Below, piece after piece: positions 2,798 through 31,743 of a stretch of DNA of 32,000 nt. This DNA is from Candidatus Saccharimonadota bacterium. Its GTDB lineage: Bacteria; Patescibacteriota; Saccharimonadia; Saccharimonadales; Saccharimonadaceae. The stretch is from contig JAIUPJ010000001.1 of the NCBI GenBank assembly GCA_020160975.1, positions 690,001 to 722,000 of the forward strand, read 5' to 3'. Made by a program: the position numbers and the translations under genes. The notes under the pieces are model-generated. The model did no database searches and had not been told where the DNA came from. It worked only from the letters and a program-made list of their open reading frames with translations. Positions within the stretch are counted from its first letter, which is position 1. The number at the start of each line of letters is the position of its first letter.

Positions 2798-2928
2798 TGC
2801 ACGCACATGCCAGCAGCGCGACAAGCAAAAAAGCAAAATTATTATCTCGAGTCACGCAAGCGGTAGGGAGGGGTGGTGATGTGTCGAATCCACTTTGATG
2901 AATCATTGGGAGGGCAGGCCGTCCCTGT

Positions 2929-26220: not shown

Positions 26221-26685
26221 ATGAAGCAATCAACTCCGTACCCTGCACCATCGTTTACACTCCTTGATAGCGAGGGGGCGACTAGGTCGCTCAAGGATTA
26301 CGCTGGCCAATGGCTCATTCTTTACTTTTACCCCAAAGACGACACGCCTGGCTGCACAATCGAGGCCTGTAGTTTTCGGGATATGCATGAGTCGTTGCTG
26401 GCGCAAGAAGCGGCGGTGGTCGGCGTCTCACAGGATGACACGGCTAGTCACGTGGCCTTTCGCCAAAAATACGACCTTAGCTTCACCTTGCTAAGTGACC
26501 CGGAGCGAAAAACAATTGAAGCCTATGGCGCATGGGGCAAAAAAATGTTTGGACATGAGGGCATCCTGCGCAAGACATTCATCATTGACCCAAACGGGCA
26601 GGTAGTAAAGGCCTATGGACGGGTCACACCGCTCGGCCATGCCGAAAAGGTGCTCGCAGACCTGAAACAACTCCAGGCACGCTAG
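26221..26685 (+). CDS. bcp: Thiol peroxidase Bcp / PrxQ-type peroxiredoxin
   Basis: YFYPKDDTPGCTIEACSF has the peroxidatic Cys in PGCT and a resolving Cys 5 residues later. I use the ATG at 26221, with TATACT (26209-26214) 6 nt upstream. Confidence 0.9.
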   Translation: MKQSTPYPAPSFTLLDSEGATRSLKDYAGQWLILYFYPKDDTPGCTIEACSFRDMHESLLAQEAAVVGVSQDDTASHVAFRQKYDLSFTLLSDPERKTIEAYGAWGKKMFGHEGILRKTFIIDPNGQVVKAYGRVTPLGHAEKVLADLKQLQAR

Positions 26686-27404
26686 CGAGGGCGACGGGCA
26701 GCGGTGTCGCGGGCTAAGCTCGCGAAGTGATCGTCTATCACCGCAGGATGAAATTCGCCGTACTTTCGTATCACGGCTTGCTCGATGAGCCAGTCGGCAA
26801 TTGCGGGATTTTTGGGGAGAAGTGATCCGTGCAGATAAGTGCCGATGACATTGTTGTACCGTGCGCCTTCGGTACGGTCTTGATTGTTGTTGCCAGCGCC
26901 ACGCATGACTGTTCCGAGTGGTGTTGCGTTCGCGCCAAGGGTAGTGAGACCACTATGGTTCTCGTAGCCGACAATCGAACCAAACTTATCGTTCTCAGTG
27001 ACAATGTTGCCAATGAGTCGCTCGTGCCCCCCGACGGTGACGATATCGAGCAAGCCAATCCCTTTTATTTCCTCGCCATCTTTTGTTTTGAAATAATGAC
27101 CAAATTGTTGGTAGAGCCCGCAAATCATCAACATTGGTACGCCCTGGTCAGCCAAGGTTTTTAGCCGATCGCCGATACCAAGAAGATCATCGCCAATCTT
27201 TGACTGACCGCTATCTTGCCCGCCGCCACCAACGATGAGGTCAACTTCTTTAGGAAATTCATCGCCAGGATTGTAGGCTACTAAATTGACACCATAGCCG
27301 TGCCACTCAAGTCGCCGCTTCAAAACAAGGGTATTACCCCAGTCGCCATAGATATTCATATCTCTTGGGTAAAGTTGCAGAAGCGTAATCGTGCCTCGTG
27401 TCAT
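26682..27404 (-). CDS. gatD: Lipid II isoglutaminyl synthase, glutaminase subunit GatD
   Basis: LYPRDMNIYGDWGN, ICGLYQQFG (Cys nucleophile) and YLHGSLLPKNP (His). It overlaps the murT stop (ATGA-type junction) as in known murT-gatD operons. Confidence 0.88.
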   Translation of the reverse strand: MTRGTITLLQLYPRDMNIYGDWGNTLVLKRRLEWHGYGVNLVAYNPGDEFPKEVDLIVGGGGQDSGQSKIGDDLLGIGDRLKTLADQGVPMLMICGLYQQFGHYFKTKDGEEIKGIGLLDIVTVGGHERLIGNIVTENDKFGSIVGYENHSGLTTLGANATPLGTVMRGAGNNNQDRTEGARYNNVIGTYLHGSLLPKNPAIADWLIEQAVIRKYGEFHPAVIDDHFASLARDTAARRPR

Positions 27405-28681
27405 CGTACGGTCTCCACGCTAGTGTATTTGCGAAGCAATTTCCGCACGCTGAGCATAGCGGTATAGGTGCAGTAAATGCGGCGGGTCGGCTGGGTACCC
27501 TGCTGCATGAATGCTGCCAGCGCTTTGTCGACCGATGGTTCGACGGTACCAATTAGAACTTCATCGTACTGTAGCCGAAGTGCCATGTCGTAGGCACGAA
27601 CACCGCTCACGACCTTGACGCCTTCGGTCAGTGAATCGAAATCAACATCCCACAGCCAACTCATGTCACGGCCATCGGCATAGTCGTCGTTGATGACAAT
27701 CATGGTATCGGTATCTTTCGACGAGAAGCTCTTGAGGCTCAGGCGAAATCCTGCGGGGTTTTTGACGAGTACTAATTCGTAGGTAGTCTCACCTACCGCG
27801 ATACTTTCTCCACGTCCAAACGCTGGCGTGACAGCGGCGAGTGCCGTGAGCATAGCTGTCACATTGAGCGTATCACCAAGTACCATGCGAGTGACGGCAA
27901 TCGCCCCGACGGCATTTTGAGCATTATAGATACCACGCAGTTTGAGATCGACGGTGTGTGATGTGCCCCCAAAACCAATACGGGCAGTTTGATCGGATAA
28001 TGCTTCTAGCATGGTCGTATCGGCGAAGCTTGGCTGCTTCACCAGAGGTAATGATGCTGCGCCATGAAGCGCATCGTCAGTGGGAAATTCTTTGAGGAGA
28101 TCTGGCGAGACGCCGTACGAGCGGACGGGAACCGTCAAGAGCGAGTGAAATGCGGGCTTGGCAAGTCGAGGGTCATCCTGATTGACGACGACGCCTTTGG
28201 TTGTATGCGCGGCGATTTTGTAGAGAAGCTCGGCTGTTTTGTCGATTTCTCCAAAACGATCCAGCTGGTCGCGCATGACATTGAGAAGGAGGCAGTAGCT
28301 CGGTGAAACTGCCTGCACGAAATGCACTGCATGAGCTTCATCGAGTTCAAGAACAGCGATATCGGCATCGAGCTTGCCGCGCTGGTCCACAGCACCGAGC
28401 AAAGCGGCGGTGACACCTCTGGTAAAATTACTGCCTGTGCGGTTGGTAAATACCGTGAGGCCCTGGCTTTTGAGTAGTTCAACGACCATTTTTGTCGTAG
28501 TGGTTTTGCCATTGGTGCCACTTACCAGTACGACTCCCATCGGCAAGGTGGTGAGGGTGCGGCGCATGAAATCACGGTCGATTTTCTCAACAAATAGTCC
28601 AGGCAGTGCCGAGCCGCCTCCGCGCAATTGAGAAATTTTTTTGACCGTCTTGCCGAGGCTGGTTGTGAGCTGATGACGCAT
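27401..28681 (-). CDS. murT: Lipid II isoglutaminyl synthase, Mur-ligase-like subunit MurT
   Basis: VSGTNGKTTT P-loop, LLNVMRDQLDRFGEID, and C-terminal DUF1727-like DGRDMSWLWD. TATAAT (28689-28694, minus strand) lies 7 nt upstream of the ATG. Confidence 0.9.
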   Translation of the reverse strand: MRHQLTTSLGKTVKKISQLRGGGSALPGLFVEKIDRDFMRRTLTTLPMGVVLVSGTNGKTTTTKMVVELLKSQGLTVFTNRTGSNFTRGVTAALLGAVDQRGKLDADIAVLELDEAHAVHFVQAVSPSYCLLLNVMRDQLDRFGEIDKTAELLYKIAAHTTKGVVVNQDDPRLAKPAFHSLLTVPVRSYGVSPDLLKEFPTDDALHGAASLPLVKQPSFADTTMLEALSDQTARIGFGGTSHTVDLKLRGIYNAQNAVGAIAVTRMVLGDTLNVTAMLTALAAVTPAFGRGESIAVGETTYELVLVKNPAGFRLSLKSFSSKDTDTMIVINDDYADGRDMSWLWDVDFDSLTEGVKVVSGVRAYDMALRLQYDEVLIGTVEPSVDKALAAFMQQGTQPTRRIYCTYTAMLSVRKLLRKYTSVETVR

Positions 28682-28742
28682 TCCTTTTATTATACCGATT
28701 TCGCAAGCGATAGCGAATTCTTCCGGGTCGCGGAACGTGACT

Positions 28743-28803
28743 GGGCAAGTAAGGCGGATTTATTCCGTCATACTTGCGGGAAGGGTTGGCCCTTCCCTTA
28801 TAC
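28743..28803 (+). repeat. 61-bp two-hairpin element, copy 1
   Basis: GGGCAAGTAAGGCGGATTTATTCCGTCATACTTGCGGGAAGGGTTGGCCCTTCCCTTATAC. Hairpin 1 (28745-28777) is GCAAGTA-A-GGCGGA-TTTAT-TCCGTC-A-TACTTGC. Hairpin 2 (28778-28797) is GGGAAGGG-TTGG-CCCTTCCC. It is identical to copy 2. Confidence 0.9.
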
Positions 28804-28846
28804 CCATTATACGTAAGCAAGCGATAGCGTAGCCTTTAGGGGATGG

Positions 28847-28907
28847 GGGCAAGTAAGGCGGATTTATTCCGTCATACTTGCGGGAAGGGTTGGCCCTTCC
28901 CTTATAC
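28847..28907 (+). repeat. 61-bp two-hairpin element, copy 2
   Basis: Perfect 61/61 identity with 28743-28803, at a period of 104 bp. The flanking box GCAAGCGATAGCG is also duplicated (28703-28715 and 28816-28828). Confidence 0.9.
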
Positions 28908-28912
28908 TTTAG

Positions 28913-28918
28913 TACAAT
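28913..28918 (+). promoter_or_regulatory. -10-like TACAAT, 6 nt upstream of ATG 28925
   Basis: TACAATAAGATTATG has the same shape as TATACTAAGACTATG at ruvA and bcp. Confidence 0.45.
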
Positions 28919-28924
28919 AAGATT

Positions 28925-29308
28925 ATGTTTATAGTGGGGCTGCTCTCTTGGTGGTACGGTGCAGGATGGGCGAGACAGGCGCGTGCAGTCAGAGATAGGC
29001 TTGCAGGTCTGTACGACTACTTTTCGATTGACCTATTGCTAAAGACTTTATTCTCGCCTTTTCGTCAGATTTCAGCTGGAAGCGTGCGTGGCTCGATTGA
29101 TGTACAAGTACGAGCCTGGCTTGACCAGCTTATCTCTCGGGTGATTGGTATGATTGTGCGGAGTATCGTGATGGTAATTGGCTGTGTGACGCTATTTTTC
29201 GCGGCAATAGTTGGGATTGTGTCTCTTTGTGTATGGCCACTGGTACCACTGACGCCGGTGTTGGGAATTGTTTTTGCACTGTCAGGATGGGTGCCGTGGA
29301 CGATCTAG
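28925..29308 (+). CDS. Small hypothetical membrane protein, co-oriented with and overlapping the Clp-like gene
   Basis: An N-terminal hydrophobic segment (FIVGLLSWWYGAGW) and two C-terminal TM helices. I recognise no family. Confidence 0.5.
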   Translation: MFIVGLLSWWYGAGWARQARAVRDRLAGLYDYFSIDLLLKTLFSPFRQISAGSVRGSIDVQVRAWLDQLISRVIGMIVRSIVMVIGCVTLFFAAIVGIVSLCVWPLVPLTPVLGIVFALSGWVPWTI

Positions 29309-31743
29309 TTGTCAACTATCATAGCCAGCGTGCTGCAGAGGCACGGTTCGGTGTACAATTACGAGGATTCATGGCGGCATCGCTACCTTGGACTGCGCTT
29401 CTCGGTGCGCTTCTCGGTGTGGGCTTGTTGGTACTGGGAGTGAGTATCGGCTGGGTGCTGGTGGGGCTTGCTGGCATACCATTGATGTTACACGCATACT
29501 ATCGACATCATCTCATCACGCTACCACCATCTACAAACAGCCTTACCGATATGATTGCAGGTGATGTATTGGGCCGACTGCCACGCAAGCCATCACCTGC
29601 AGACATCGCGAAGGTAGTAGGTGAGGTGCCGAGTGGACAGTTTATGGCAGTGCGATTCGGACTTACTTCTGGATTGTTGCTTTCGATGGCATCGGTAGAT
29701 GCCGGCACAGCAGCCGCAGTGTGGCAGCAGGCTGACAATATTCGTGAAAAATGCAAGCTCGATCAGATCAGCGGAGCGGTGCTTGCGGTTGCGATTGTCC
29801 GGTCGTTTCCTGATTACCAGGCAGTGCTCGCACAAATCCATATCGATGACGAAGACCTCGATAGGGGTATTCTCTGGCAACAACAGCTGATGACACTACT
29901 AGAGAAATATAGCAAGCCACGACGCACCGGCGGAATCGCACGCGACTGGTCATTTGGATATATTCCGCTACTGACACGATTTGGCCAGAATATCAGTGAG
30001 CAAATAAGTCGGGGTACTGGAGTGCTAACGGTTGACGTGGCTTCGCACCTGGAAGCAGTGATGCAATTGGTCGAAACCTTTGGAAGCGGCGGTCGTCAAA
30101 ACGTCGCGCTAATTGGTAAAGAAGGCGTGGGCAAGACGACAATTATTCATGCCTTTGCTGCTCGGTTGCTCGACGCCGACGAGATACTGCCCGACTCTCT
30201 CCGCTTTCGTCAAGTGTTTCTGCTTGATGCCGCAGCGCTGATTGCTGCCGCGCCGGGACGAGGCGAACTGGAAGGGCTTGTGACACGTGTGCTCGGCGAG
30301 GCGCACCGGGCAAAAAACATTATCATTTGTCTTGATAACGCCCAGCTGTTTTTTGAAGAGGGTGTAGGGTCGGTTGATCTAGCCAATGTCTTGCAGCCAA
30401 TTCTTGATGCCGGCAGCCTGCGCATCATTCTCTCTATGGACGAGCAACGATTTTTGCAAATCAGCCAGCGAAACCCTGGACTGGTGAATGTGCTTAATCG
30501 TGTAAATGTCGCACCTGCGAGCGAGACCGAGACAAAGACCGTCATGCAGGAGCAGTTGATTTTGATGGAAGTGCAGCGCCACGTCACCTATATGTACCAG
30601 GCAATCAAAGAGGCCTATCGTCTCGGCGAGCGCTATGTACACGACCTCGAGATGCCGGGGCGCGCGCTGAAGCTGCTTGAATCAGCAGCAAGCTACAGCG
30701 AGTCAGGACTCGTAACGATGAATTCAGTTCAGCAAGCAATCGAGAAAACACTTGATGTTAAGGTGAGTGTGGCAAGTAGCACCGAGGATCGAGAAAAACT
30801 GCTCAACATGGAAGAGTTGATCCATCAACGCATGGTCAACCAAACACGTGCGGTCAGTGTGGTCAGTGATGCGCTACGTCGCGCGCGGGCAGGGGTGAGA
30901 AATGAGAATCGGCCAATCGGTACGTTCCTGTTTCTCGGGCCGACGGGCGTAGGGAAAACCGAGCTCAGCAAAGCACTTGCTGACGTGTATTTCGGTGGGG
31001 AAGAGCGAATAATTCGCATTGATCTCAACGAGTTCGTGCGCGCAGAGGACGTGTCTCGGCTGATTCGTGATGGCGCCCAAGACCCCACGAGTTTGACCGC
31101 ACAGGTCATGAAACAGCCGTTTAGTGTTGTGTTGCTCGATGAAATCGAAAAAGCGGCGCCAGAAGTGCTTGCGACGCTGTTGCAGTTGCTCGACGAAGGC
31201 ATCCTGCGCGACGAGAAAAATCGCGAAGTGAGCTTTCGCGATGCCATCGTGATTGCCACTAGTAATGCTGGGGCTGATCGCATCAGAGAGTATATCGAAC
31301 GGGGCATGGAGGTTGCTAAGTTTGAGGACGCATTTATCGACGAGTTGATCAGCAGTAATCAATTTCGTCCGGAATTTTTGAACCGGTTTGATGAGATTGT
31401 GGTCTTTCGTCCATTTACGAAGCCAGAGTTAGTGCAAGTGTGCGATTTGATCTTGGCGAGTGTCAATAAAACCCTCGCAGTTCAAAAGGTATCAGTCGAG
31501 GTAGAGCCTGCAGCAAAACAGCTTCTGGTTGAACAGGGCTATGATCCACGGTTAGGCGCGCGACCGATGCGTCGAGTGGTGCAAAAAGCCGTTGAAAACA
31601 CTGTAGCAAAACAAATGCTCAGTGGAAGCGTTGCGTCTGGCGACACGATTACTATTACCGAGGCGCAAGTTGCGCAGGTTTTTGGTATCGAGGCAGGTCA
31701 TATGGGAGGAGACTCGCCCGTGACGCCGCCCCCTGGTGTATAA
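29287..31743 (+). CDS. Membrane-anchored Clp/Hsp100-family two-ring AAA+ ATPase
   Basis: Two N-terminal TM helices (LPWTALLGALLGVGLLVLGV, WVLVGLAGIPLML). D1 has Walker A GKEGVGKTT but Walker B IIICLDNAQ. D2 has Walker A GPTGVGKTE and Walker B VVLLDEIEKA, followed by sensor/ClpB_D2-small-like GARPMRR. The start is uncertain: ATG 29287 overlaps the upstream gene by 22 nt, and ATG 29371 (GAGGA upstream) is an alternative. Confidence 0.8.
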   Translation: MGAVDDLVVNYHSQRAAEARFGVQLRGFMAASLPWTALLGALLGVGLLVLGVSIGWVLVGLAGIPLMLHAYYRHHLITLPPSTNSLTDMIAGDVLGRLPRKPSPADIAKVVGEVPSGQFMAVRFGLTSGLLLSMASVDAGTAAAVWQQADNIREKCKLDQISGAVLAVAIVRSFPDYQAVLAQIHIDDEDLDRGILWQQQLMTLLEKYSKPRRTGGIARDWSFGYIPLLTRFGQNISEQISRGTGVLTVDVASHLEAVMQLVETFGSGGRQNVALIGKEGVGKTTIIHAFAARLLDADEILPDSLRFRQVFLLDAAALIAAAPGRGELEGLVTRVLGEAHRAKNIIICLDNAQLFFEEGVGSVDLANVLQPILDAGSLRIILSMDEQRFLQISQRNPGLVNVLNRVNVAPASETETKTVMQEQLILMEVQRHVTYMYQAIKEAYRLGERYVHDLEMPGRALKLLESAASYSESGLVTMNSVQQAIEKTLDVKVSVASSTEDREKLLNMEELIHQRMVNQTRAVSVVSDALRRARAGVRNENRPIGTFLFLGPTGVGKTELSKALADVYFGGEERIIRIDLNEFVRAEDVSRLIRDGAQDPTSLTAQVMKQPFSVVLLDEIEKAAPEVLATLLQLLDEGILRDEKNREVSFRDAIVIATSNAGADRIREYIERGMEVAKFEDAFIDELISSNQFRPEFLNRFDEIVVFRPFTKPELVQVCDLILASVNKTLAVQKVSVEVEPAAKQLLVEQGYDPRLGARPMRRVVQKAVENTVAKQMLSGSVASGDTITITEAQVAQVFGIEAGHMGGDSPVTPPPGV

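Follow-up and report, generated by a model that had tools for sequence, protein, structure and literature searches.

Repetitive extragenic palindromic elements (REPs) are 20–40 nt long, extragenic and near-identical within a genome, and the same REP flanks the gene of the REP-associated tyrosine transposase (RAYT). [quoted passage not shown] Rickettsia palindromic elements (RPEs) are structured repeats found both between genes and in-frame in housekeeping genes, with a recurring peptide and no known transposase, and among the BOX, RUP, SPRITE, ERIC and QMITE repeats some are terminator-like (SPRITE) and some occasionally intragenic (PMC10969869). Here we describe a structured repeat in a 32,000-nt stretch of a Candidatus Saccharimonadota genome (GCA_020160975.1, contig JAIUPJ010000001.1, positions 690,001 to 722,000; hereafter the window), where two identical 61-mers lie between the divergent genes murT and that of a 127-amino-acid (aa) membrane protein. 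They probably correspond to hairpins P1 and P2 in two copies, arranged head to tail, of a dispersed, multi-hairpin repeat of about 90–100 nt, a non-autonomous selfish element resembling RPEs or REPs that was duplicated locally. The repeat family is previously undescribed, extends across a Saccharibacteria order, and is absent from Rfam 15 and from the literature searched.

The two 61-mers (28743–28803 and 28847–28907 in window coordinates) are 100% identical, 104 bp apart and both contained in the 243-bp spacer between the two genes; dinucleotide shuffles of the window gave no match. Each consists of a 33-nt hairpin and a 20-nt GC-rich hairpin, as had been proposed from the letters alone (hereafter the sequence-only reading), and folding confirmed both hairpins (−35.5 kcal/mol and z = −6.8 for the plus strand, −30.0 kcal/mol for the minus strand). 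The G-T pair reported in the first hairpin is real, and the opposite strand has a C-A mismatch there. Also duplicated are the box GCAAGCGATAGC (plus strand, 28703–28714 and 28817–28828) and ATTATA, which is TATAAT on the minus strand and whose proximal copy lies 7 nt from the murT ATG; the duplicated GCAAGCGATAGCG and ATTATA boxes adjoin the two 61-mers. The sequence-only reading had placed the duplicated module within 28682–28924. The duplication stands but the confinement does not, as the two copies, each about 89–99 nt long, belong to a dispersed family. Its box is duplicated as described and is the 5' hairpin (P0) of the element itself. A small open reading frame (ORF) within the module was considered and rejected: it is not conserved, and the sister species has no ATG there.

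The family was visible only with covariance models. A search for further copies of the 61-mer had been suggested together with the original observation, and plain BLAST found no genome beyond that of the sister species (G013; the genome containing the window, of 971,550 bp, is G000, and other G numbers are related genomes). A second locus of G013 has two more tandem units of different stems. A first model (R1, built from five copies) found 12 copies in G013 and matches in 11 of 81 genomes of the genus. The refined model (R2, from 33 copies) finds 15 copies in G000 at E < 0.005, on both strands, with one more in the window at 2855–2928. This last copy is degenerate, begins with the same CGCAAGCG box without CTTTAG, and is located between two plus-strand genes. 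In a sample of the order, R2 matched 41 of 301 genomes and 39 of 218 genera, counts which are lower bounds given the strict filters used. Related genomes differ in copy number, from none to at least 14 (the latter in G324, from another family of the order). No match was found outside the order in a phylum-wide sample of 351 genomes (about 330 of them from outside it), which doubles as a specificity control. Rfam 15 gave no match at E ≤ 10 in window positions 28300–29300; at four loci with canonical copies the element itself had no match at E ≤ 1 (one match lies elsewhere in locus L168). Phage records contained no match to the element, metagenome contigs contained no match to an exact 53-mer, and literature searches turned up no such repeats for Saccharibacteria or Patescibacteria.

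From 5' to 3', the element comprises a small GC hairpin in many copies (e.g. GCC-GTA-GGC), the short hairpin P0 (often C-G / G-A / A-G / GGC-GNNA-GCC, the box mentioned above being the P0 of a local subfamily), a conserved single-stranded stretch of CUUUAG followed by a G-rich run, and the hairpins P1 and P2. The lower stem of P1 is variable and its apex, YCGAAUUYAYUUCGR, is conserved (core GAAUUYAYUUC). P2 is GC-rich, with a 5' arm that is always purine-rich (GGGAGGGG) and a 3' arm that is always pyrimidine-rich and is followed by T. The coordinates of these parts in the window are listed in Table 1; relative to R2, copy 1 has a 10-nt insertion at the single-stranded region. Covariation across the family indicates that the hairpins are real structures under constraint, and covariance analysis, which had been recommended for homologous regions, gave a strong signal on the copies of the family, with 93–96% of cells paired against 74% after shuffling. 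In the first of two largely independent copy sets (A4), 95.7% of the cells are paired (shuffled 73.5%, slid controls 41–56%), with 152 two-sided changes versus 46 in shuffled alignments. The second set (A5) gives 93.4% (shuffled 73.9%, slid controls 38–57%) and 138 versus 38 two-sided changes. P0 covaries too (e.g. CCAATGC/GCATTGG and CGATAC/GTATCG). The suggestion that the plus strand is the structured one also holds at the level of the family: the modelled strand has 24 G-U versus 8 A-C pairs (in an alignment that had been fitted to the model), and the reverse strand scores only 10–14 bits under the model, versus 69–95 bits.

Table 1. Features of the window, with the element copies given before the promoters and neighbouring genes.
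Feature	Position	Strand	Remarks
Element copy 2 (canonical)	28816..28904	+	Model R2, 95.3 bits, E = 1.6e-22, model positions 1-89
Copy 2, P0 hairpin	28817-28833	+	Includes the box of the sequence-only reading
Copy 2, single-stranded CTTTAGGGGATGGGG	28834-28848	+	
Copy 2, P1 hairpin	28849-28881	+	
Copy 2, P2 hairpin	28882-28901	+	Followed by the tail TTA
Element copy 1 (variant)	28702..28800	+	Model R2, 69.3 bits, E = 5.1e-16
Copy 1, P0 box	28703-28715	+	Identical to copy 2
Copy 1, unrelated stretch of ~29 nt	28716-28744	+	In place of the CTTTAG/G-rich stretch
Copy 1, P1 hairpin	28745-28777	+	Identical to copy 2
Copy 1, P2 hairpin	28778-28797	+	Identical to copy 2
Third, degenerate copy	2855..2928	+	Model R2, 30.0 bits, E = 3.4e-6
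murT −10 box TATAAT	28689..28694	-	7 nt upstream of ATG (cat at 28679-28681)
Second TATAAT box	28806..28811	-	117 nt upstream of the first
TACAAT −10 box of the 127-aa membrane-protein gene	28912..28917	+	7 nt before ATG 28925
murT	27401..28681	-	Pfam MurT_C 93 bits, Mur_ligase_M 66 bits; neighbour, outside the element
gatD	26682-27404	-	Downstream of murT; GATase_3 128 bits
127-aa membrane protein and overlapping membrane-anchored Clp-like ATPase	28925..31743	+	Neighbours, outside the element

The G-rich run mirrors the P2 5' arm, and the two change together in the alignments (A3–A5), as in GGGATGGG/GGGAAGGG or GGAGTGG/GGAGAGG. The run could form an alternative pairing with the C-rich 3' arm of P2, or a G-quadruplex with P1 in its long loop. 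At the 3' end, a second conserved block (ACTGCTCGCGCTTGCGGG.AGAGCGTAAGCC) comes after some copies (L080 and L088, in G067 and G013), and in G324 the copies are followed by GAGCTCGACAG; these additional blocks suggest larger composite units in some lineages.

The positions of the copies show no preference of the kind that a regulatory leader would have. With gene calls in the relatives made by our own ORF heuristics, 66 copies were sorted by context: 14 are in sense and 12 in antisense orientation between co-directional genes (antisense examples are the der/pth, mraZ/rsmH, pilC/pilin and rpsI/trpS spacers), 14 lie in convergent and 8 in divergent spacers, and a further 16 overlap an ORF call, most such ORFs being short and probably spurious. 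A consistent sense position in a 5' untranslated region (UTR), as for a riboswitch or cis-acting leader, was found neither among the 66 copies nor at the window locus, and no consistent −10 box precedes the copies, the second copies of arrays having none at all. One copy (L060) does have a GATAAT box after the terminator of the upstream gene. P2 frequently ends within 1–10 nt of the adjacent gene or tRNA, or immediately ahead of a −10 box. Seven copies (L059, L062, L069, L103, L105, L109 and the one at 811895 in G000) lie 2–10 nt from a tRNA gene, three of them just upstream and co-oriented and four abutting the tRNA 3' end in convergent orientation. At two further loci the surroundings of the copies were recorded: in G025 (L071, ~1600–1630), the stretch between an element copy and dnaJ contains an inverted repeat resembling CIRCE (CTAGCACTC-N9-GAGTGCCAA), and on contig C4 of G013 (L024/L089) three copies are interleaved with genes which, named by reading their sequences, encode a PspC-domain-like membrane protein, a GlsB/YeaQ/YmgE-like 87-aa protein and a receiver-only response regulator.

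Some copies lie inside housekeeping genes and leave the reading frame open. In G000 this is the case for gltX (C1:185249-186793), where the element contributes a 43-aa insert just before the FAHMPHI segment of GltX, and for topA (C1:208798-211290), with an element-derived TopA insert of about 29 aa. The same gltX site is occupied by a copy in G017, G025 and G291 (a genome of another family) and by a decayed one in G006, and it is empty in four close relatives (G019, G023, G014 and G021), which read YEALG-x3-P-x-FAHMPHI there. Among 41 genomes of the genus, only G000 and G013 have the topA insert, the gene being contiguous in the other 39. Other genomes have copies in der, uvrD and, in antisense, fpg; the identities of the insert-bearing genes were confirmed by Pfam. 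The sense intragenic copies share one reading frame, in which the P1 loop reads E-F-T/A-S and P2 reads Q-A-E-G (topA, uvrD, gltX), and in the topA copy CTTCAAG replaces CTTTAG, avoiding a stop codon. The gltX insert of G017 is a clean one of 96 nt, extending from the 5' mini-hairpin to the end of P2, and has neither terminal inverted repeats nor a target-site duplication. Terminal inverted repeats were likewise not seen by eye in the G324 copies, and when flank repeats were scanned for target-site duplications, significance was reached only inside arrays and at lepA and pth.

Head-to-tail arrays of 2–3 units occur at several loci: in G013 on contigs C24 (3 units), C18 (2 units) and C4 (2 plus 1 units), in G006 on C11 (2 units), in G075 on C84 (2 units, with identical P1-P2 and different 5' halves, as in the window) and in G000 at 438337/438404. 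Tandem arrays and their homogenisation are thus properties of the family, and the window 61-mers fit this pattern. The view that identical 61-mers beside diverged flanks reflect recent duplication or conversion is borne out by the same pattern in these other arrays. At the lepA locus, three species share an element copy with the final ~62 nt of the gene, stop codon included, on either side of it (C1:671750-672000 in G000, which is L076, and L077 and L072). As counted on alignments, these gene ends are 87–90% identical within a genome and about 74–80% between species, which indicates concerted evolution or repeated re-duplication.

The spacer of the window can be followed in relatives, as murT lies beside the membrane-protein gene in 29 of 30 genus loci examined. 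In 27 of the 29 genomes with this divergent pair the spacer is element-free and 45–83 nt long (197 nt in one), with cat-N6-8-ATTATA at its left and TACAAT-N7-atg at its right edge in the genus; an insert, of two copies each, is present there in G000 and G013 only. The G013 spacer has two units with a period of 160, which agree fully over about 88 nt and are 83% identical to those of G000. Between the two species, pairing is preserved by two-sided changes (GCAAGTA/TACTTGC to GCTC/GAGC, G-T to T-A, A-A to G-C), and a new G-T pair in hairpin 2 of G013 is again on the plus strand. In that spacer (L003 1282–1460), the first element copy is followed by an inverted copy of the murT start (CATAGACTCTCAGTAGACATGGGG vs catATAGTCTCAGTATACTACCCC), suggesting a more complex rearrangement than a simple tandem duplication. 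In G000, a direct repeat (TTATACCGATT / TTATACCCATT) flanks copy 1, and the second TATAAT is a copy of the murT −10 box carried in the duplication unit, which comprises the element and its adjacent flank; its activity as a promoter is putative. In the genus both genes have a −10 box (TATAAT/TACAAT) 6–8 nt from the ATG and no Shine-Dalgarno sequence, which suggests back-to-back promoters of leaderless or near-leaderless mRNAs. The TACAAT promoter of the membrane-protein gene was found by a promoter scan (9/12 matches). This protein has no Pfam match, and the Clp-like ATPase matches AAA_2 and ClpB_D2-small. Since the −10 boxes sit so close to the start codons, the element is upstream of both of them and not within a leader.

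The sequence-only reading had offered three roles tied to this locus: tandem operators for both divergent operons, a promoter whose duplication provides murT with a structured leader, or a leader acting in cis on the Clp operon. The location between two divergent promoters, the duplicated TATAAT and the P2 loop of copy 2 (TTGGCC, 28890–28895), which falls at the −35 position of the TACAAT promoter, speak for such a device. The same element is nevertheless present at about 15 unrelated places in the genome, in all orientations, and the family extends into five housekeeping genes, whereas 27 of the 29 relatives with the same gene pair do without it. Its stems vary freely between G000 and G013 with pairing kept, unlike those of a sequence-specific operator, and no CtsR, HspR (HAIR) or CIRCE site was recognised at the locus by eye. 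The duplicated TATAAT is accounted for by the duplication unit of a dispersed element, and the TACAAT box, 7 nt from its ATG, leaves the element upstream of the transcription start, so that the Clp leader does not contain it. A dedicated murT/Clp regulator is ruled out by the combination of the distribution, a gain in a single small clade, random orientation and intragenic copies that are translated; any locus-specific device is very improbable, and this false lead can be removed. An effect of the element on the two promoters is possible, with the P2 loop at −35 and the second TATAAT as candidates. A host-functional family of structured RNAs is less improbable than that, though still unlikely: small RNAs (sRNAs) or RNA modules (terminator, stabiliser or protein-binding) would be transcribed off the modelled strand, with the two copies at murT/Clp forming a tandem sibling sRNA locus and with the copies inside genes as accidents or decayed relatives. 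It is supported by the strong covariation, with loops and a single-stranded motif that are conserved, and the RNA-like GNNA-capped P0 with tandem G-A pairs, the excess of G-U over A-C pairs on one strand, the compensated changes between orthologous copies, the GC-rich P2 that so often ends close to the next gene, tRNA or −10 box, and the GATAAT box of L060 all point the same way. G-A-closed GNA/GNNA mini-hairpins are, however, also very stable in single-stranded DNA, and template switching in quasi-palindromes can yield compensated changes without selection. Moreover, sense copies lie in-frame in gltX, topA, der and uvrD and are predicted to be translated, 12 of the 26 copies between co-directional genes are antisense, second array copies have no visible promoter, and the copy number varies widely among related genomes. 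As to a terminator, P2 is an 8-bp GC-rich hairpin and a terminator scan lists the distal window copy (5 T in 8), but the family tail has only 1–3 T, whereas canonical T-run terminators exist in these genomes.

The observed family membership, distribution, covariation, in-frame intragenic copies, empty sites and recurrent arrays are best explained by a selfish element, which is gained and lost site by site, enters spacers in any orientation and is found in-frame in housekeeping genes. One copy would have entered the short spacer between the divergent −10 boxes in an ancestor of G000 and its sister species, followed by a local tandem duplication of a unit made of the element and the adjacent murT −10 box, with conversion keeping the 3' halves of the copies identical. 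The fold would be kept because the single-stranded form of the modelled strand, as DNA or RNA, is needed for spread or persistence, and any effect on murT or Clp expression would be a by-product. A more specific version, in which the element is mobilised in trans as a single-stranded DNA hairpin by a RAYT-like Y1 transposase of the HUH type, seems doubtful at present. G000 encodes one 202-aa Y1 protein (gene at 456241–456849) with an HUH motif (HFH) and a YIHLNP motif, matching PF01797 above the cut-off (29.9 bits, cut-off 23); its best NCBIfam match is REP-associated tyrosine transposase, although at 42 bits it is below the 80-bit cut-off. The gene is flanked by inverted 29-nt hairpin repeats, as RAYT genes are (C1:456211-456897, core TTAAGGGTTGCACCCTT, third copy at 648446), and together they are, judged from sequence, a small REP/RAYT-like unit in a Saccharibacteria genome. 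Similar Y1 genes of ~200–215 aa occur in 83 of the 301 order genomes. The stem of the repeats flanking the G000 gene (AAGGGTTGCACCCTT) resembles the P2 core of the window (AAGGGTTGGCCCTT), the element lacks terminal inverted repeats and target duplication and has hairpins near its ends, and in hand-picked genomes the element went together with Y1 (10/11 vs 1/10, p = 3e-4). On the other side, 24 of the 41 element-positive genomes have no Y1 match, and no element copy lies beside the Y1 gene in G324, G375 or G013. Several further results weigh not only on this version but on the selfish reading in general. No mobilising enzyme is tied to the element: the repeats flanking Y1 are not R2 matches and have only 3–4 copies, the co-occurrence is weak in the order sample (17/41 vs 66/260, odds ratio 2.1, p = 0.04), and G000 has no reverse transcriptase (RVT_1), a domain showing no association with the element. 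GC skew and gene-strand bias place the replication origin near 500 kb; relative to replication, 7 loci are in leading and 6 in lagging orientation, i.e. the strand-specific insertion of the IS200/IS605 type is not seen. No near-identical copy was caught at a new site. Copies within one genome differ almost fully in their stems, yet retain the loops, the GNNA-capped P0 with tandem G-A pairs and the single-stranded motif, and between the orthologous copies in gltX of the two species G000 and G025, P1 has three pair changes, all fully compensated; such a pattern is more suggestive of in-place selection acting on a nucleic-acid fold with a function than of a recent transposon burst. The fold may be maintained in one of three ways: by selection on the element itself, by selection in place for a function of host or element, or by template-switch correction of quasi-palindromes.

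There is a small chance that the fold represents a new class of structured nucleic acid which is both selfish and functional, for instance a compact four-helix RNA or single-stranded DNA (with the GNNA-capped P0, the junction of CUUUAG and the G-run, and the P1 apex) recognised by a dedicated protein of host or element such as a RAYT-like Y1. As a mobile system of the REP/RAYT-like or RNA-mediated kind, it would then be the first in the candidate phyla radiation, kept in place by selection and capable of entering essential genes in-frame. Strong conservation of the structure, specific to one strand and with no known mobiliser, is itself a mechanistic question, and Saccharibacteria are genetically tractable, tools having been published for one of them (PMC10633639). 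The family occurs in genomes of ~1 Mb, where selfish DNA is expected to be scarce, and its in-frame copies show the origin of some lineage-specific protein insertions, in parallel to Rickettsia. For annotation, copies create spurious ORFs and can pass for regulatory RNAs; they may also break assemblies, the gltX gene of G013 being at a contig end.

Compared with known systems, tandem sibling sRNAs and tandem riboswitches share with the window locus two adjacent structured units in which a conserved 5' part is followed by a variable hairpin and a GC hairpin at the end, but the element differs from them in its inconsistent orientation and 5'-UTR position, its translated intragenic copies and the lack of an Rfam match. 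The pneumococcal BOX, RUP and SPRITE repeats, ERIC and the QMITEs of Coxiella are, like it, modular structured intergenic repeats with a variable number of modules; unlike MITEs, its clean 96-nt gltX insert has neither of their hallmarks, flank duplications being limited to lepA, pth and the arrays. With the REP/BIME-RAYT systems (REPINs), the family has in common GC-rich hairpin repeats that are often arrayed, at gene ends and in either orientation, and a genome with a single RAYT-like Y1 gene flanked by inverted hairpins. In contrast to REPs, the element measures 89–99 nt with 3–4 hairpins, is also intragenic, differs between copies at nearly all stem positions, and is not the repeat that flanks the Y1 gene. 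With RPEs it shares structured repeats of roughly 100–150 bp in a reduced genome, in-frame insertion into unrelated housekeeping genes with the ORF left open and empty sites in relatives, a recurring encoded peptide (here E-F-T/A-S and Q-A-E-G) and the absence of a known transposase. The phylum differs, the likeness is one of behaviour, and a sequence relation to RPE-1 to RPE-10 is not expected. The Saccharibacteria element is moreover modular, with four hairpins and a conserved single-stranded motif, and forms head-to-tail arrays, and its stems are far more diverged, with conserved loops. By this comparison, the element appears closest in behaviour to RPEs, and less close to REP and BOX elements.

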